This document shows positions 2,592 to 30,323 of a stretch of 30,323 nucleotides of DNA, piece after piece. The position numbers and the translations under genes were made by a program. The stretch lies in IMG/VR virus record IMGVR_UViG_3300028837_001169, positions 1-30,323 of that record; one strand, written 5' to 3'. The DNA comes from a virus (Duplodnaviria; Caudoviricetes). The notes below the pieces were generated by a model. That model made no database searches, was not told the DNA's origin, and saw only the letters and a list, made by a program, of their open reading frames with translations. Every line of letters starts with the position of its first letter. Within the stretch, counting starts at the first letter, position 1.

Positions 2592-4553
2592 ATGACCGAA
2601 ATAATAACATCAACCGAGACGGATTGTTCATGGCTTATAGATGCATTTTCTCGCAGGCCTACAAAACATAGAAATATTACTATCCCTGAATATTCAGAGA
2701 CAACGATAATCCCCGCCGGAAAGTACAGGGATGCATTATTCCGGCTCGACCGTGCACCTTACGTGCGCGAACCATTACAAAAACTTTCCCCTGGCTCAAA
2801 TACGCAGGAAGTAAGATTGATGTTTCCAGCGCAAAGCAGCAAAACGACAATAGGCGAGATTGTTGTAATGTATTATATCGAAATTGTGCCCTCGGAAATT
2901 CTCCATGTAAACTCAAACGCAGATCAATGCCGTATATGGTTTCAAACTCGCATATCTCCACGGGCTATGCAAAAAGGAATAGAATTCCGCGCACAGGTGG
3001 AAGGCACAAGAAGGTCAGGAAATACATTATATTCAAAAGAATTTGATGGCGGGAATCTCGATCTTGCATCCGCCCTCTCATCTGCCCAGCTTGCCTCAAA
3101 AACAAAAAGGATAATTCATGCCTGTGAAATCGACAGATGGCGTGAAGAGTTAGGCTCGGAGGGTCTTACATGGGAGATTATGTACGCCAGGACTCAGGCA
3201 TGGGGAGATCAAAGAAAAATACTTGCAGAGTCTACACCAGGCACATATGAGGCAAGCCTTATATGGCGATTATACGAAGAAGGAGATCAACGTCTTTTCT
3301 GGGTACAATGTCCTATATGCAAAGAACCACAAACATTGGAATTATATGCTGAAAAAAAATACGGTCTCTATTATGAAACAAAAGCCGGTATAATAGACAC
3401 AAAGTCAATCTGTTATATTTGTCCATCCTGTGAGAAATCCTGGAAAGAATACATGAAACATTATGTACTTATGACAGGGAACTGGAGAAAACAAATAGAT
3501 TCAAAAAATCCTTATATTTCGAGTTATCATATTAATGGCATTTACTCCCCTTTTTTGGGATGGGAAGAAATAGCAAGAAAACACAATAAGATCAAAAATA
3601 ATTATATATTGCAAAAAAGTTTTGACAATCTTGTTATGGGAAGACCTTCGAAAGAAACGGGTGTACGTCCGAAAGCAGAAAAGGTGATTGAACTTAAGGG
3701 CATTTATCGTCCTGGAATAGTACCGGAAGGTGTATTGTTTTTGACGATAGGCATGGATGTACAGCGCGGATCAAAAGGGGACAAAAAAAATCCGCCCCGG
3801 GTAGAGCTGGAAATATTGGGTACCGGACCCGGATATCGCACATGGTCAATCGATTATCTGAGATTTGAGGGAGAAGTGACGAATCCGCACGGCGGCGCAT
3901 GGGAAAAATTGCACAAATGGGCAGTTGATACCGGGCTGGTATGGAAGCGAAAAAGCGATCTTAAAGAATTCCGGCCTATGCTGATTTTCATTGATTCAGG
4001 CGATGGATATCTTACCAGTACCGTATATACATTTACCCAGCGCTGGAAAAATACATTTCCCATCAAGGGAACCTCTTCCTTGAAATCACCAGAAAAAGGC
4101 GATCCAATCACAAAAGAAAATTTTTCCCGATATCGGTATACACTGATTGCCGAAGGGTTGATATTATATACAATAGCTACGAATTTCTACAAAACAATGA
4201 TATATAATAACCTCAAAATTAAGCGTATTCCAGGAGAAATACAGGCACCCGGATTCTGCGATTTTCCCTTTGAATACGGACAAAAAGGGTCAAAATATCA
4301 ATATTATTTCTCCATGCTCACGGCTGAGGAAAAATTGAAAGACGGAAGATTTGACAATGGCGGCAGACGTAACGAAGCTCTTGACTGTAGAGTTTATGCC
4401 CTATGTGCCGCAGATGTCTATCTTTATGGTCTTGTAAAAAAGCTTAGAGACGCCATGAAAGGAAAGATGAAACGGGAGGATATCGAAAAAATTAATCGGA
4501 AATGGATAATTGAAAAGCTAAAAAAAGAAATAGGTACTCCTCTGGGCTTTTGA
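2592..4553 (+). CDS. terminase large subunit, lambda GpA family
   Basis: APYVREP, AQxxKT, ESTP, GDQRLFWVQCPIC, CPSC, LTIGMDVQ, FIDSG, RNEALDCRVYA motifs. Confidence 0.93.
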   Translation: MTEIITSTETDCSWLIDAFSRRPTKHRNITIPEYSETTIIPAGKYRDALFRLDRAPYVREPLQKLSPGSNTQEVRLMFPAQSSKTTIGEIVVMYYIEIVPSEILHVNSNADQCRIWFQTRISPRAMQKGIEFRAQVEGTRRSGNTLYSKEFDGGNLDLASALSSAQLASKTKRIIHACEIDRWREELGSEGLTWEIMYARTQAWGDQRKILAESTPGTYEASLIWRLYEEGDQRLFWVQCPICKEPQTLELYAEKKYGLYYETKAGIIDTKSICYICPSCEKSWKEYMKHYVLMTGNWRKQIDSKNPYISSYHINGIYSPFLGWEEIARKHNKIKNNYILQKSFDNLVMGRPSKETGVRPKAEKVIELKGIYRPGIVPEGVLFLTIGMDVQRGSKGDKKNPPRVELEILGTGPGYRTWSIDYLRFEGEVTNPHGGAWEKLHKWAVDTGLVWKRKSDLKEFRPMLIFIDSGDGYLTSTVYTFTQRWKNTFPIKGTSSLKSPEKGDPITKENFSRYRYTLIAEGLILYTIATNFYKTMIYNNLKIKRIPGEIQAPGFCDFPFEYGQKGSKYQYYFSMLTAEEKLKDGRFDNGGRRNEALDCRVYALCAADVYLYGLVKKLRDAMKGKMKREDIEKINRKWIIEKLKKEIGTPLGF

Positions 4554-4584: not shown

Positions 4585-4600
4585 TGGCATACTATTTGCA
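4585..4600 (+). promoter_or_regulatory. sigma-54 (-24/-12) promoter P1
   Basis: TGGCAT-ACTAT-TTGCA matches TGGCAY-N5-TTGCW; predicted +1 near 4611-4612 coincides with an ATG. Confidence 0.65.
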
Positions 4601-4611
4601 TGTATATTAAT

Positions 4612-4878
4612 ATGAAAATATATGACCCAAATAAACGAAAAGCAAGATACAGAAAAAACCGGAAAAAAGAACTCAAAAAGGCAAAAGAAAGATATCGAGA
4701 TAACCGGGAAAAGCTCAAAGCAGATGCTCTGGCCCGATATTATATAGAGCACGAAAAAAATAAAAAGAAAAATCGGGACCGAATGAGAAAAAAAAGGGCA
4801 CTTGAAAAGCAAAAACGTTCAACGGTAAAAATTGATGTGTCAAAAAAACACAATTCTAAAAAAATAGAAGAAAAGTAG
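4612..4878 (+). CDS. highly basic helical protein (possibly nucleic-acid binding), probably leaderless
   Basis: MKIYDPNKRKARYRKNRKKELKKAKERYRDNREKLK..; in frame with ORF 4555..4878; no SD. Confidence 0.55.
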   Translation: MKIYDPNKRKARYRKNRKKELKKAKERYRDNREKLKADALARYYIEHEKNKKKNRDRMRKKRALEKQKRSTVKIDVSKKHNSKKIEEK

Positions 4879-4936
4879 TGTCAAAAAAACACAAATAGTA
4901 TTATTTTGTAGACATTTTACTGTATCAAAAAAACAC
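4837..4936. promoter_or_regulatory. three GT(G/A)TCAAAAAAACAC repeats, candidate enhancer (UAS) sites
   Basis: Copies at 4837-4851, 4878-4892 and 4922-4936 (starts 41 and 44 bp apart), GTGT..ACAC dyad, 70-170 bp upstream of P2. Confidence 0.65.
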
Positions 4937-5004
4937 ACCTTTTTCTCTTTATCTTGTTAGATGGTAAAATCAAGCAATATAAGCACTTCTTTTCTGTGTT
5001 TTCT

Positions 5005-5020
5005 TGGCACGGATCTTGCA
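5005..5020 (+). promoter_or_regulatory. sigma-54 (-24/-12) promoter P2
   Basis: (T)TGGCAC-GGATC-TTGCA, a perfect consensus in intergenic DNA; predicted +1 near 5031. Confidence 0.8.
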
Positions 5021-5030
5021 TCTATATATA

Positions 5031-5220
5031 TAGGTAAGAAAAACCTACGGAGTCTTTGACAGACTGGCTCCGGCTTAAACCTGAGGGTAGTAACCCAGGG
5101 GGAATTGAAACCGGGGAATTGAGAGAGCACACAAAGGACTACGGGTAGCGCACTTAAATACATCACATCAGCCGTTCGACTCGGCACAGTCCTATACCCT
5201 GCATAGCAGGGAAAACAAAC
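5031..5220 (+). ncRNA. putative structured leader RNA with tRNA-like subdomain
   Basis: Consecutive hairpins 5031-5047, 5048-5072, 5080-5099, a T-arm/acceptor-like fold 5135-5194, and hairpin 5197-5211. Confidence 0.45.
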
Positions 5221-5240
5221 AAACCTTGAGGAGGGTGATT

Positions 5241-5462
5241 ATGAAGACATTAAACGAAACAAGAAGAGAACAAGTTGAGAGAGAAGCAAAGATTTTTTTG
5301 ATCGACCAAATAATTGAACAGTCGGGAGGACTTATTTCTAAGGAAAATGCACCTGATTATATAATAGAATTTGGTTGGCATAAAAATTGTGTATATGCCT
5401 CGATTGATGCCCTAAATAATCCTGTTGTAATTGCAACTTTAAAAAAGGGCGTTTTATATTAA
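5241..5462 (+). CDS. small cassette protein 1 (MKTLNE..), unknown function
   Basis: SD GAGGAGGG then ATG 5241. Confidence 0.7.
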   Translation: MKTLNETRREQVEREAKIFLIDQIIEQSGGLISKENAPDYIIEFGWHKNCVYASIDALNNPVVIATLKKGVLY

Positions 5463-5470
5463 AAAATGGA

Positions 5471-5569
5471 GAGGAGGGGACCTGGCCGGACCCTCCTCAT
5501 TTTACCCGGGTGTCCTGCGGGGTGCCTGGGCGAAATTGCCGGCGGGCTTACGCAAGTAGGAGGGTGAAT
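5471..5569 (+). repeat. intergenic structured repeat, copy A
   Basis: Identical to 7231-7326 outside the central hairpin; three hairpins plus SD. Confidence 0.9.
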
Positions 5570-5776
5570 ATGAGAACTAATTTAACAAGAAAAGAAAGAA
5601 AACAGATTAAAAAGTATAATGATTGTATCAGACCGATTGATAAAATCATGAGAAGAAACAATACATGGTATGTACTTTTTTGTGATTCGTATCAGTATGA
5701 AGAGGCTGAGTATGAGGAGGGTGAATATGAAGACATTACCAACATGGAAAACAGACAGAATCCTACAGATTGTTAA
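5570..5776 (+). CDS. small cassette protein 2 (MRTNLTRKE..), chimeric C-terminus
   Basis: SD then ATG 5570; 5593-5712 is identical to the reverse complement of 30204-30323. Confidence 0.65.
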   Translation: MRTNLTRKERKQIKKYNDCIRPIDKIMRRNNTWYVLFCDSYQYEEAEYEEGEYEDITNMENRQNPTDC

Positions 5777-5936
5777 AGGAATAAAAAATCAACCTATAGG
5801 AATTCAAGATTTTGACACAAGGGATACCGAAACCATTAATGCTCTTATTGAAAAAAAAATAGTGAAAATAGAAAATAATAAGCCTTTTCTTACAAAAAAA
5901 GGTGAAAAGCTTTTATCTAAAATAAAAGCAAAATAA
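5727..5936 (+). CDS. small cassette protein 3 (MKTLPT..), winged-helix-like
   Basis: SD GAGGAGGG then ATG 5727; INALIEKKIVKIENNKPFLTKKGEKLL resembles a wHTH wing. Confidence 0.65.
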   Translation: MKTLPTWKTDRILQIVKGIKNQPIGIQDFDTRDTETINALIEKKIVKIENNKPFLTKKGEKLLSKIKAK

Positions 5937-6044
5937 CTATATCCGGGGACCTTCCCGGTATGTCTGATAAGCGGTGCGTCCGGTCGATGAGTCGATCACG
6001 TTCAGGCGGGAGTACTAATAACCGAAACCTTGAGGAGGGCAATT

Positions 6045-6254
6045 ATGACAAAGATAAAATATAAAGGAGAAATATTATATAAATGTTTTTTTTCACCAGG
6101 GCAGATATATTATTATGCATCTTGTTTGCCCATGCCATGTGGGTTTGGACATGTGAAAACGCTTGAGGAAGCATATCAACAAAAAAAAAGATTAATGGCC
6201 TGGGCAGATCAACAGGAAATCGACTTACGCAGATGGAGAGGAGAAGAGATATGA
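6045..6254 (+). CDS. small cassette protein 4, unknown function
   Basis: AAACCTTGAGGAGGG junction then ATG 6045. Confidence 0.65.
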   Translation: MTKIKYKGEILYKCFFSPGQIYYYASCLPMPCGFGHVKTLEEAYQQKKRLMAWADQQEIDLRRWRGEEI

Positions 6255-7219
6255 AGACATTAACAAAGAATGAAAGAAACTTAATAGAAATAAGCGAAAA
6301 TTTTGACTTGCTTAAAGATTTTGAAATTAAAATTTTTAAAGAAAAAAAATATGTCAGGATTTCCAGAAATAAATATATCTGGGAATATTTTTCTTTTACG
6401 GATTTTCCAGACTTGCCAGTAAAGGCAAGTGTAGAAGAAATAAAAAATCATATAAAAATGTATCTTTTTTTTCTTGAGGAACAAAGATATAAAGACATGG
6501 AAAGCAAACTTACAAAATATGAAAAAAAGTATATTGCACAAATTGATTTTCAAAAATTGTTTGATCTAGAAGATAAGATGATTTCTGAAAACAAATATAG
6601 GTCTATACTATTGTTAATGACAAACCACCGAATTCGTATAGGTTGCTGGGGGTACATAAATATGTACCCAGAAGAATTCGGTATATATTACGAGTCATCA
6701 CGTTTTTATTCTTATCCGAAAAACGGTGTGTTCTCAACATTGACCCACCGCCAAGATTATTCATATAAAAACGAACTATTCACTTTTGAAAGAAGAAAAA
6801 AAATGATGATTTATGAAATAATTTTAGAACGCTGCCTAAATAAAAGGTACAAGAAAAAAAGGAAAAACAGGGAAGCAATGATATATTTTCTCTTAAAAAG
6901 AAATCTTTGCAAACCAATACTGTTAAAATATGAAAAATTCGAAAAATATTGTAAATCAAAACACATTAAAACAACAAAAGAAACATTTCAATCTATAACC
7001 ACAGATATATTTCAAAATGTTTTTAGTTCTACAGACAAATCAGAATTATCTATAGGCGGAGAGATCATCCTTGACGCTCCTATGTTATTTGATAATCACG
7101 TCGAACGAAGAAATTTCGATTCAAAAATAGACAAATGTGATTTTAAAGGATATGTTCCTGCAGGAACCTGGTTAACAATGGAGGGGAAATATTACTTTCA
7201 AAAGATGAATAATAGTTAA
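6251..7219 (+). CDS. cassette protein 5 (MKTLTK.., 322 aa), unknown function, very AT-rich
   Basis: ATGAAGACATTA start with ATGA coupling to the previous stop. Confidence 0.7.
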   Translation: MKTLTKNERNLIEISENFDLLKDFEIKIFKEKKYVRISRNKYIWEYFSFTDFPDLPVKASVEEIKNHIKMYLFFLEEQRYKDMESKLTKYEKKYIAQIDFQKLFDLEDKMISENKYRSILLLMTNHRIRIGCWGYINMYPEEFGIYYESSRFYSYPKNGVFSTLTHRQDYSYKNELFTFERRKKMMIYEIILERCLNKRYKKKRKNREAMIYFLLKRNLCKPILLKYEKFEKYCKSKHIKTTKETFQSITTDIFQNVFSSTDKSELSIGGEIILDAPMLFDNHVERRNFDSKIDKCDFKGYVPAGTWLTMEGKYYFQKMNNS

Positions 7220-7230
7220 TTTATTTTCCC

Positions 7231-7328
7231 GAGGAGGGGACCTGGCCGGACCCTCCTCATTTTACCCGGCAGCCCCATGGGGCTGCCGGGTAAAATTGCC
7301 GGCGGGCTTACGCAAGTAGGAGGGTGCC
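7231..7328 (+). repeat. intergenic structured repeat, copy B
   Basis: Contains a perfect 38-bp palindrome at 7259-7296. Confidence 0.9.
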
Positions 7329-7358
7329 ATGAAAACAATAAGAATATGCAAAAAATAA
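7329..7358 (+). CDS. 9-codon minigene or cassette remnant MKTIRICKK
   Basis: Strong SD AGGAGGG, ATG 7329, TAA 7356-7358. Confidence 0.35.
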   Translation: MKTIRICKK

Positions 7359-7387
7359 GTCCCTTTGCTCTCTCGGATCTATGTGGG

Positions 7388-7412
7388 AAGCCGGGGAAAC
7401 CCGGCTTTTTTT
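7388..7412 (+). terminator. intrinsic terminator closing the cassette island
   Basis: AAGCCGGG-GAAA-CCCGGCTT followed by a T-run. Confidence 0.8.
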
Positions 7413-7413
7413 C

Positions 7414-7442
7414 TTGACATAAAAATAAACTTATGCTATTTT
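7414..7442 (+). promoter_or_regulatory. sigma-70 promoter for the head genes
   Basis: TTGACA-17bp-TATTTT with extended TG. Confidence 0.65.
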
Positions 7443-7448
7443 TGTAGT

Positions 7449-7736
7449 ATGGCTTGTCTTACCGTCGAGAGGCGAATTGAATTAGAAGAAAGATTACAAA
7501 AAAAAATAGCTCAACTCGAAAAATTGTATGAAGCATTTGACAATTTTGATAATGTCGAACAATACAAATTTCAATCAGCAGAAACAATGCAGCAAACAAA
7601 ATATCGAGGCATAAAAGAATTGCAGGACGCTATCGATCGGCTTGAAGCATCAATTGACAGAATTAATCGGATTCTTGGAAATACCGGACTAAAAAATATA
7701 GTTCTAAGGCGCCGGGGGTATTGTGGCACTATTTGA
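7449..7736 (+). CDS. head-tail joining protein, gpW-like
   Basis: Helix-hairpin-helix pattern (QYKFQS..TKYRGIKELQDAIDRLE) directly before the portal; ATG 7449. Confidence 0.7.
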   Translation: MACLTVERRIELEERLQKKIAQLEKLYEAFDNFDNVEQYKFQSAETMQQTKYRGIKELQDAIDRLEASIDRINRILGNTGLKNIVLRRRGYCGTI

Positions 7737-9315
7737 TTTTCTTTTCAAAAAACAGATAAAAAAACTTGCAAAAAAAACAGCCGACAAATATATAACACAT
7801 TATGTATATAGTCTGAAAGCAGCATATAATAATTACCACTCTTACAGCGATATGTATTCAGGCGCAAAGTGGCCGTATGGTCTCTCGGCTCCCGGATCCG
7901 GTTTTCTTATCAATCATTATACTACTCGACAAGAGGTGCGGGCAAAAGTCAATGAAAATCTAATTGCAAAAAGTATAGTAAGCAGATTTGCCGATACCGT
8001 AGCCGATATAGGCCTAAAAAGAGAATCTATCCCGGATCCTGAAATTCTGGGAATTACTCCAGAGCAGGCCGAGGAGTGGGCTGAAAATGTTGATCGTCGT
8101 TTCCATCTCTGGGCAAAATCAAAAAAACAGCATAGATCGGGTCAATACAATTTCTATCAATCTCATAGATTATATGCTGAATGGATGTACAGGGATAATG
8201 ATATTTTTACTCGCCTTTATTATTCTCAAAAAAGAGATTTACTCAATCCCCTTCAATTCGATTTTATAGAACCGAATCAAATTCGGGGAGATGCTTTTAC
8301 CTCTTCTTGTTATCAATTATCAAATGATGGAGATGGAATAATAAGAAATCAGGATGGATCCGAAAAAGCCTATAAGGTTTGGTTACAAATCCCCGGGAAA
8401 TATGAATACAAAGATATAGAAATTCCCGCAATTGGTCCGAGATCGAAAAGAAAAATGATGCTCCATGGATTTGCTCCTAAATATGCAGGACAGGGGCGGG
8501 GCTTTTCTCCGCTTGCTCACGCAATACAGGAATTTGAAAACGTAACAGATTTCTCCTCTTCGATTATAAAAAAAGCAATTGCACAAAGTTCTATTGCTCT
8601 CGGTGTAGAGAATGATCAACTTGATCCATCCGATCCGCTTGAAAATCTGAATATTTCGGGAGCCGGTCCTATCACAGATACCGGGGAAGAATTCGTTCAA
8701 GCGCAGCCTGCAGGACCGCGTTTGAATTATTGCCAACTTCCGGAAGCAACCTTGACAACTCCCGGAAGTGTCGGCGTTTTTAATATGCAAAAAGGCGACC
8801 ACCTAAAATATTATGAAAATAAAACTCCGGCAGACAGTTACGAATCATTCATGAATACTTTTGTGTCTTATCTTTCAGCAAGTACCGGAATGCCTGTAGA
8901 ATTTTTGCTCATTAAATTTAATAACAATTATTCATCTACGCGGGCTATGCTCATAATTGCCTGGAGGATTGCCCTTATATGGCGTGAAGAAATGGCGGCC
9001 GATTATCTCGATCCAGTATTCGAGGCATGGCTATCTGAAGAAATAGCTGCTGGCAGAATTCTTGCACCTGGATGGCAGGATCCGATTTTAAGGGCTGCCT
9101 GGCTTTACGGGAATTGGATCGGCTCACCCATGCCGCAAATCGATCCACAACGGGCAGCAAAAGCAAACGAAATTAATGCAGGAATGGGATTGACTACCCT
9201 GGACAGAGAGGCAAGAAATCTTAACGGATCATCAGGGAAGGCAAATAGAACAAAACTGAAAAAAGAATATAGCGAATTACCGCCGTCACCATTCAAGAAG
9301 GGAGGAAGTGTATAA
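7723..9315 (+). CDS. portal protein, lambda family
   Basis: 530 aa; GQGRGFSPLA, NYSSTRA, W(I)GSPMPQIDP motifs. Confidence 0.92.
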   Translation: MALFDFLFKKQIKKLAKKTADKYITHYVYSLKAAYNNYHSYSDMYSGAKWPYGLSAPGSGFLINHYTTRQEVRAKVNENLIAKSIVSRFADTVADIGLKRESIPDPEILGITPEQAEEWAENVDRRFHLWAKSKKQHRSGQYNFYQSHRLYAEWMYRDNDIFTRLYYSQKRDLLNPLQFDFIEPNQIRGDAFTSSCYQLSNDGDGIIRNQDGSEKAYKVWLQIPGKYEYKDIEIPAIGPRSKRKMMLHGFAPKYAGQGRGFSPLAHAIQEFENVTDFSSSIIKKAIAQSSIALGVENDQLDPSDPLENLNISGAGPITDTGEEFVQAQPAGPRLNYCQLPEATLTTPGSVGVFNMQKGDHLKYYENKTPADSYESFMNTFVSYLSASTGMPVEFLLIKFNNNYSSTRAMLIIAWRIALIWREEMAADYLDPVFEAWLSEEIAAGRILAPGWQDPILRAAWLYGNWIGSPMPQIDPQRAAKANEINAGMGLTTLDREARNLNGSSGKANRTKLKKEYSELPPSPFKKGGSV

Positions 9316-29540: not shown

Positions 29541-29600
29541 CCGGAATCCCTTCCGGTAGTCCTCCTTGGTCCGGGGGTTGAATAATCAATCCCCGGTTTT
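29540..29600. terminator. terminator region between convergent units
   Basis: Hairpins 29540-29557 and 29571-29596, the latter followed by TTTT. Confidence 0.6.
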
Positions 29601-29828
29601 ATGTCTTTTCTTAATTATCCTTAATGTTTCATAACATCCTTTAGGGCAATATTTTGATTCAAAATTATTTGCATTATAGCAAAATGCCCATTTATTGCCA
29701 TATTGTGAAAACATTATTTTTCTTGCATCCCGTTCATCTTTTGCATTGATTTGAATATAATAATCTTTCATTTCTTCATTGGTTTCGGGATGTTTATGCA
29801 TTTGTCCAAATGTAAAATAATACGTCAT
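29586..29828 (-). CDS. hypothetical phage protein (YYFTFGQMH)
   Basis: SD AAGGAGG, ATGA coupling with the HTH gene. Confidence 0.7.
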   Translation of the reverse strand: MTYYFTFGQMHKHPETNEEMKDYYIQINAKDERDARKIMFSQYGNKWAFCYNANNFESKYCPKGCYETLRIIKKRHKTGD

Positions 29829-30043
29829 ACTTTGTCCTCCTTTAATTTGCCGAAATTTTGTATTTCAATTTCATGTTTGATTTTTTCTATAAGCATTTTC
29901 CGATAAGCGACCGGCGGTACACGCTTTCCTTGTTCCCATGCCTGATAGGTACTAAGGGAAAATCCTAAAAATTTTGACATAGATTCCTGGGTATATCCTA
30001 TCCTTTTCCGATAGCTTTTCAATTGATCGCTAAATGATTTCAT
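29825..30043 (-). CDS. XRE-family HTH regulator
   Basis: LKSYRKRIGYTQESMSKFLGFSLSTYQAWEQGKRVP. Confidence 0.88.
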   Translation of the reverse strand: MKSFSDQLKSYRKRIGYTQESMSKFLGFSLSTYQAWEQGKRVPPVAYRKMLIEKIKHEIEIQNFGKLKEDKV

Positions 30044-30144
30044 TCCCTTTCTCTCCTCTTACGTTTCTGCCCGCCGGCAATTTTACCCAGCAGCCCCATG
30101 GGGCGACCGGGTAAAATGAGGAGAGTTTACGTAATGCCCTCCTC
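30044..30144 (-). repeat. intergenic structured repeat, copy C (inverted)
   Basis: Minus strand reads GAGGAGGG-11nt-CTCTCCTC ATTTTACCCGG..GGGTAAAAT TGCCGGCGGGC, then SD and ATG. Confidence 0.88.
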
Positions 30145-30163
30145 GGGGGCCAAAAAGTGCGGT

Positions 30164-30323
30164 TTAGTTTAAATTTAACTCCTCACAAATCATATCAATC
30201 ATGTACTCAGCCTCTTCATACTGATACGAATCACAAAAAAGTACATACCATGTATTGTTTCTTCTCATGATTTTATCAATCGGTCTGATACAATCATTAT
30301 ACTTTTTAATCTGTTTTCTTTCT
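30164..30323 (-). CDS. 3' part of a paralog of cassette protein 2 (runs off the window)
   Basis: ERKQIKKYNDCIRPIDK..EEAEYMIDMICEELNLN*; stop at 30164-30166. Confidence 0.75.
   Translation of the reverse strand, partial: ERKQIKKYNDCIRPIDKIMRRNNTWYVLFCDSYQYEEAEYMIDMICEELNLN

Follow-up and report, generated by a model that had tools for sequence, protein, structure and literature searches.

The window analysed here is the whole of a 30,323-nt stretch (IMG/VR record IMGVR_UViG_3300028837_001169), a 30.3-kb contig of an uncultured phage along which terS, a methylase gene, a gpA-type large terminase gene (terL), an island of small genes, a gpW-like gene, a lambda-type portal gene and the head genes follow one another. 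The island between terL and gpW is almost certainly an inserted, variable array of accessory genes. Its promoter region probably imitates a spirochete stress regulon, both in the enhancer and in the sigma-54 promoter, such that an enhancer-binding protein of the host would switch the array on. To phage arrays of a kind already described, the locus adds two things: a single array family has exchanged its promoter class, and the phage enhancer corresponds to that of a definable host regulon. If true, the expression of phage accessory genes would be tied to the signalling state of the host; a literature search covering titles and abstract openings returned no report of phage promoters that rely on a host enhancer-binding protein or mimic this enhancer.

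Enhancer boxes, promoter and a spirochete regulon

Two sigma-54 sites were recognized at the head of the island, an upstream P1 and the array promoter P2 (Table 1). By count alone such sites are not beyond chance in the window (three matches to the consensus versus 0.93 expected; 8 of 100 shuffles). The palindrome TGTGT-N7-ACACA, on the other hand, occurs four times versus 0.26 expected (0 of 100 shuffles), and three of its copies lie in phase and conserved at about 70-200 bp upstream of P2, as is typical of palindromic upstream sites. Conservation was assessed against L115, a contig of another phage that carries the same platform away from terL. All 51 box bases are identical between the two, compared with 33 of 66 third codon positions of the accompanying open reading frame (ORF), ORF0, and 14 of 28 positions in the stretch after box 3; within P2, the consensus bases agree at 11 of 11 positions and the spacer at 3 of 5. 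P2 is conserved also in L131, a closer relative (97% over the platform). By these alignments the boxes and P2 are conserved beyond the neutral level, and P2 is very probably a functional promoter. The predicted start of P1 coincides with the ATG of ORF0, which would thus be leaderless; in L115 the -24 element of P1 is kept and a single change renders the -12 element non-consensus. Immediately before box 1 (within 4810-4834), another 22 nt are near-invariant in L115 despite a frame shift, and may form an additional binding site. An element resembling an integration host factor site near 4968-4980 was not counted, having two mismatches to the consensus.

The same box was found in the genomes of Spirochaetota. 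Of the four exact 15-mer matches in that phylum, two precede a sigma-54 site at the head of one and the same gene, which encodes a 285-residue RpoD/RpoS-like sigma factor that scores below every NCBIfam equivalog cut-off and is often located beside groES. Among 31 orthologs of this gene (30 loci from 34 of 61 matching genomes, plus L179), a sigma-54 site was present upstream in 22 and the box, with at most one mismatch, in 20. Three host loci in this and the following set had been found through the box itself; with the two that are sigma-gene loci removed, the count is 18 of 29. Coding-sequence controls gave 0 of 31, shuffles a mean of 0.46 and a maximum of 2, and boxes with spacer lengths of 6 and 8 gave none. 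Loci of hsp20, of which 2 of 30 were dropped for too short an upstream region, have a sigma-54 site in 22 of 28 cases and the box in 12 of 28 (11 of 27 without the box-found locus), with controls at 0 of 28 and 1 of 28. In the reverse direction, a matrix built from 15 host boxes ranked the three phage boxes first in the window, at 19.8, 16.3 and 13.3 bits, the next site scoring 9.2; on the sigma-70-type relatives G003, G005 and L098 it reached at most 8.2 bits, and G001 has one 13-bit site elsewhere. The host loci (L178, L179, L186-L215, L227-L256) describe a conserved sigma-54 regulon of Spirochaetota that includes the alternative sigma gene and hsp20, with the enhancer consensus TGTGTCA-N3-TGACACA.

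Since the same box precedes sigma-54 promoters of the host sigma gene and hsp20, a host enhancer-binding protein is likely to drive the array, and we infer a spirochete as the host; that such a protein reads the phage boxes is quite likely. To judge from the target genes, the signal may well be of the stress type. An NtrC-type activator of the host would bind the three in-phase boxes and open P2 under protein-damaging or envelope stress, with an Rrp2-like response regulator as the first candidate. The array transcript would then stop at 7412, and the head genes would restart from their own sigma-70 promoter. In Borrelia burgdorferi, an alternative sigma gene has a sigma-54 promoter and is governed by an NtrC-type activator, in the Rrp2-RpoN-RpoS cascade (PMC4014564). 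The host sigma gene resembles that arrangement in having a sigma-54 promoter and differs from it in encoding the 285-residue RpoD/RpoS-like factor; moreover, the box was derived here from sequence, and Rrp2 as its binder is a candidate. One hint to the Rrp2 type comes from G188, where a single box heads an operon beginning with murG and ending in a PAS kinase and an NtrC-type regulator. A concrete motif for this regulon would make the DNA target of the activator directly testable. Elsewhere, in a bacterial genome (L181 and L185, G614), three identical copies of the box fall within 2.5 kb as part of a repeated element, with no sigma-54 site.

Several observations weigh against a host-driven array. 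The exact 15-mer is not enriched genome-wide in Spirochaetota (matches in 4 of 401 versus 6 control matches), and the host counts overstate independence because the loci include close kin. Spirochete genomes have several activators each, so the activator is left as a candidate only, and no box was found near any of eight activator loci. Neither is there a direct tie to the host: the ribosome-binding-site (RBS) module of the array is absent from the 401 Spirochaetota genomes, and no prophage links the phage to them. Only two independent phages are known to carry the platform itself. The contig lacks about a third of the phage genome, and a phage-encoded activator is possible; a gene with the activator domain PF00158 was not found in five related phage records. 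As an alternative host group, Desulfobacterota were rejected, the box not being enriched there (3 of 251 versus 3 control) and its matches lacking a consistent sigma-54 context.

The boxes could instead be operators for ORF0, acting in autoregulation, with P2 being sigma-54 dependent and activated from solution or by another activator. ORF0 is present in each of the three contigs with boxes, its 3' end overlaps box 1, and the two-promoter layout is found again, with a helix-turn-helix (HTH) gene, in the sigma-70 arrays L090 and L124. In L090 the upstream sigma-70 promoter likewise points at a leaderless HTH gene (HTH_17); because sigma-70 arrays hold such a gene in the same slot, ORF0 is, by analogy, a possible regulator. 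However, the same box precedes sigma-54 genes in bacterial genomes, and ORF0 has no match to a DNA-binding domain and only two relatives (among 1.84 billion representatives), which makes the operator explanation unlikely. It and activation by the host protein may both hold if ORF0 competes for the boxes. It is less likely still that the platform is a captured host promoter serving as a decoy, its boxes titrating the activator and dampening the stress regulon while the array is expressed mostly by read-through of the late operon. Three strong boxes in the phage versus one or two at host genes would suit a decoy, as would the lack of any terminator between terL and the island in a terminator scan. 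Yet the -24/-12 elements are conserved, the leader begins at the predicted start and in register with sigma-70 arrays, and L115 carries the platform away from terL.

That register points to an exchange of promoters. The first-pass annotation, made on the window alone, had taken sigma-54 as a defining part of the platform, which does not extend to the family: nine promoters in eight contig loci of related arrays are of the sigma-70 class. In eight of these nine the -10 box is followed 6 nt later by the start of the leader. The equivalent leader of both sigma-54 versions begins 12 nt after the GC of the -12 element, at most 1 nt from the expected start. As far as sequence can tell, promoter class has been swapped within one array family with the leader kept in register. 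The annotation's proposal of sigma-54 and enhancer-driven expression fared better: the boxes and P2 appear to be under selection and match the host spirochete regulon, with no activator gene seen in the five related records.

Table 1. Positions of the island elements, their boundaries and related features (window coordinates unless a contig is named)
Feature	Position	Strand	Basis or remark
terL (gpA type), left boundary	2592..4553	+	PF05876, PF20454
P1, upstream sigma-54-like site	4585..4600	+	1 mismatch; weaker than P2
ORF0, 88-aa basic protein accompanying the sigma-54 platform	4612..4878	+	60-90% to L115, L131
Enhancer box 1 (TGTGT-N7-ACACA)	4836..4852	.	17 bp
Enhancer box 2	4877..4893	.	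41 bp from box 1
Enhancer box 3	4921..4937	.	44 bp from box 2
P2, array promoter, sigma-54 -24/-12	5005..5020	+	perfect consensus; predicted +1 at 5031-5032
Structured leader: 5' hairpin, tRNA-like acceptor stem and T-arm, hairpin, RBS module	5032..5240	+	tRNA-like part 5135-5193
Cargo ORF1, 73 aa	5241..5462	+	47% to C-terminal half of an L135 array ORF
Spacer A copy 1: three adjacent hairpins, long central stem, then RBS	5471..5566	+	covariation
Cargo ORF2, 5' part	5570..5712	+	true end in missing 130 nt; other gene in L131; duplicate at far end of window
Spacer C	inside 130 nt missing at 5712/5713		L002 and contigs of X1, X3, X4
Cargo ORF3, 69 aa	5727..5936	+	78% to L003 island ORF; weak winged-helix hint
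Spacer B: hairpin, then predicted minimal HDV-like (theta-like) fold	5942..6024	+	predicted cut 5961/5962, catalytic-position C at 6015
Cargo ORF4, 69 aa	6045..6254	+	
Cargo ORF5, 322 aa, orphan	6251..7219	+	no relative
Spacer A copy 2, then 9-codon stub (7329-7358)	7231..7326	+	repeat and folding
Intrinsic-terminator-like hairpin and U-run	7388..7412 (hairpin 7388-7407)	+	folding; similar hairpin before gpW in L003
Sigma-70 promoter with TG, for gpW-portal	7414..7442	+	same element in L003 and L098
gpW-like gene (by position) and lambda-type portal, right boundary	7449..9315	+	PF05136 (portal)
Second array, 3' end: ORF2 duplicate, spacer A copy 3, XRE-HTH gene, small ORF	29586..30323	-	start-truncated; promoter off contig
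AcrIII-1/DUF1874-family cargo in L168	12943-13410	-	
AcrIII-1/DUF1874-family cargo in L141	671-1219 and 1302-1664		in tandem

A variable slot between terL and gpW

Comparison of 85 terL loci, in 55 of which the portal gene is in reach, indicated that the site is usually compact: the gap from terL to portal is at most 501 nt in 41 of the 55 and exceeds 900 nt in 10, the 3170 nt of the window being the largest. Three relatives carry other alleles at the site. L003 (77% TerL) has a sigma-70 promoter, one different ORF and one homolog of ORF3, and L098 a sigma-70 promoter and two other ORFs. In L131 the platform, leader, ORF1 and spacer A are kept, and the gene switches within the first codons of ORF2. 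The junction of RBS and start codon is stereotyped, occurring five times in the window, and the 96-nt spacer A occurs twice at 88%; unrelated phages, among them G003, whose terminase is of another type, have arrays with the RBS module too, and in sediment runs spacer B is found separating several different pairs of genes. The spacers would double as short homology boxes for the swapping of genes by recombination. These alleles, with spacers shared among unrelated phages, bear out the suggestion of a modular, shuffleable platform, and each of the elements listed for the island (two sigma-54 sites, boxes, leader, ORFs, junctions, spacers, terminator and sigma-70 promoter) was recovered at its place. 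The gpW boundary holds by position and size only, since no hidden Markov model matched below 6e-4. The terminator hairpin was seen by folding and was not listed by the terminator scan.

The family was delimited from 59 metagenome matches to the RBS module, of which 11 were taken as array loci (L106, L111, L115, L118, L124, L128, L131, L135/L139, L141, L146 and L158); the rest resembled ordinary host genes and were left out. Scans of viral contigs with the cores of spacers A and B added one true contig. Chance matches to these cores (L159, L160, L162, L163, L165 and L167) were discarded, as were L089 and L092, likewise chance matches. No INPHARED phage matched the platform. G001 and G005 carry two arrays each with near-identical promoters, one promoter type per genome. 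The window, too, has part of a second array: its end, which lies convergent to the tail genes and has 120 nt identical to ORF2. Together with the third spacer A, this duplicate makes an inverted repeat that encloses the virion genes and accounts for the label 'inverted terminal repeats' on record G002. In a distant phage (29% TerL; L055 at 3008, L056 at 903), a sigma-54 consensus follows the terL stop directly, with no island.

Lambdoid morons are extra genes with their own promoter and terminator that lie among head genes and differ between relatives. The island shares this layout, having a promoter and terminator of its own between conserved genes and a content that differs among relatives, but it is a multi-gene array with RNA spacers, has a sigma-54 promoter at its head and has a duplicate at another place in the genome. 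Precedents were also found among ribozyme-bearing arrays: variable-gene arrays split by ribozymes have been described (PMC3088659, PMC6765202), and in prophages, clusters of hammerheads flank variable genes, one of them the anti-restriction gene ardA, and were proposed to cut a long transcript into gene-sized messages (PMC3088659). Like those prophages (Perreault et al., 2011), the window has small, non-constant genes separated by structured RNA; unlike them, its slots hold long-stem, tRNA-like and hepatitis delta virus (HDV)-like elements, and a sigma-54 enhancer heads the array. In the T4-type phages RB49 and phi1, repeated intergenic stem-loop modules termed PeSL cassettes mediate shuffling in variable regions (PMC2839356). 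Each PeSL has a sigma-70 promoter and a terminator, whereas in the window one promoter heads the array and the spacers carry the RBS module; no promoter or terminator was called within the spacers. The array part is thus of a kind already described (PMC3088659, PMC2839356), contrary to the first-pass annotation, which had not recognized the combination as a described system.

Structured spacers and processing of the message

The ribozyme folds of the spacer family had also been overlooked. In the 16-bp stem of spacer A, 8 of 16 pairs show a compensatory change among 10 sequences (0 of 500 shuffles), the pairing is rich in G-U, and the sense strand folds more stably in 9 of the 10. Spacer B retains pairings P1, P2, P3 and P1.1 and the C at the start of J4/2, with 77 of 78 cells paired over four sequences. 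By covariation the spacers appear to be RNA structures common to unrelated phages, significantly so for spacer A and not for spacer B. Six distinct type III hammerheads with loop-loop pairing were found in five related contigs, directly before the RBS module (two chance matches elsewhere), and the predicted cut of spacer B lies 1 nt from the hammerhead cut position in the same slot. Elements similar to the tRNA-like part of the leader occur in L111, L124 and L172; ARAGORN called no tRNA in the island, and the leader element is not a tRNA.

Spacer B resembles the theta ribozymes of phages (Kienbeck et al., 2024, PMC10879173) in its nested double pseudoknot, a G at the cut, a loop start U-C-C pairing with G-G, the lack of P4 and the C at the catalytic position; copy B2 in G003 shares both its L3 pattern and its L4 stretch with the commonest theta ribozyme. 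The window copy departs from that ribozyme in a 20-nt L3 containing a hairpin (versus 7 nt), a P1 of 6 bp (versus 7) and a J4/2 of 6 nt (versus 4), and from theta ribozymes also in a 4-bp P2 and the lack of an upstream tRNA (PMC10879173). The nine text supplements of that paper lack two short motifs taken from spacers B and B2. In 2.89 Mb, a descriptor of the HDV-like fold matched four spacers of arrays and, by chance, three other places; none of 300 shuffled islands and none of 3000 shuffled spacers gave a match.

Processing of the message at the window spacers is slightly more likely than not. The folded spacers would cut or protect the message between genes, by self-cleavage at hammerhead and HDV-like slots and by host nucleases at long stems and the tRNA-like element; for spacer A, RNase III would be a guess. 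Evidence on the other side is not lacking. The HDV-like descriptor was fitted to the same sequences that it matched, the covariation of spacer B is not significant (four sequences; 120 of 500 shuffles), and no intact hammerhead core was found in the window. Rfam returned nothing at gathering level on the island, although it also missed the hammerheads of the relatives. Because the window copy carries a hairpin in L3, cleavage by the predicted fold of spacer B is possible but somewhat doubtful.

It is a substantial, if the less probable, possibility that the spacers are only DNA recombination boxes and translation starts, as in PeSL cassettes, and that their RNA folds, spacer B included, do not cleave here. 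The window's want of an intact hammerhead and of the canonical 7-nt L3 of theta ribozymes would then be expected, and the swap in L131 lies at the RBS and start. Nonetheless, the same slot in relatives holds intact hammerheads and a near-canonical theta-like copy, their predicted cuts being no more than 1 nt away from that of spacer B, and the G-U-rich covariation favours RNA. A lack of cleavage would concern the RNA step only and is compatible with the enhancer part of the preferred reading. That reading in its most complete form would have a swappable counter-defence array enter the host sigma-54 stress regulon by enhancer copying, switch promoter class while keeping the transcript start, have its message cut by a new HDV-like variant with a hairpin in L3, and reveal in its boxes the DNA site of a spirochete Rrp2-type activator; as a whole this is put forward tentatively and is unlikely to hold in every part. 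Matched sigma-70 and sigma-54 versions, with several spacer classes per slot, offer a test of why phages place ribozymes between genes.

Other folds were set aside by eye: the consensus structures of twister, pistol, hatchet, hairpin and twister-sister do not fit spacers A and C or the leader, and spacer A has no core sites of an integron-type attC. Copy 2 of spacer A holds an apparently perfect palindrome, and no listed run piece spans 7260-7297 to confirm it. Further recurrent spacer classes occur in L118, L141, L135 and L090: one is a compact, pseudoknot-like element that precedes the RBS, and another, present in three copies in L135, is a purine-rich hairpin element.

Cargo genes and the contig

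The cargo most likely consists of early accessory or counter-defence proteins. An anti-defence or host-takeover role had been suggested for the island genes themselves, but none of the six small window ORFs received a Pfam, PHROG, NCBIfam or PADLOC assignment. Genes of PF08960, the family of STIV B116 and AcrIII-1 (10.1101/778746), account for 3 of 62 array ORFs scanned, all three in relatives; the 62 come mostly from related arrays, being 75 listed less window duplicates and doubtful calls, plus one HTH gene. The array family is thereby a pool of orphan proteins beside AcrIII-1-family genes, whose role in native infection is reportedly questioned by one preprint (10.1101/2023.01.10.523387). 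Atlas matches to ORF1 were all under the bar, and ORF3 matched HTH_45 with an E-value of 1e-3, below the cut-off. ORF5 yielded no homolog or Atlas match, and its predicted model was unusable at a predicted local distance difference test (pLDDT) score of 37.

One correction to the window concerns the 130 nt absent at 5712/5713, which L002 has, as do contigs of runs X1, X3 and X4. Their absence is either an assembly error or a rare deletion of one spacer, and because of it the printed end of ORF2 is chimeric and one spacer is gone from the window. The runs carrying the window are DNA runs from marine sediment and the subsurface, from two studies. Elsewhere on the contig, a DUF7768 gene and the DNA methyltransferase gene are inserted between terS and terL (1132-2535), and the tail is of the Mu-like contractile type.

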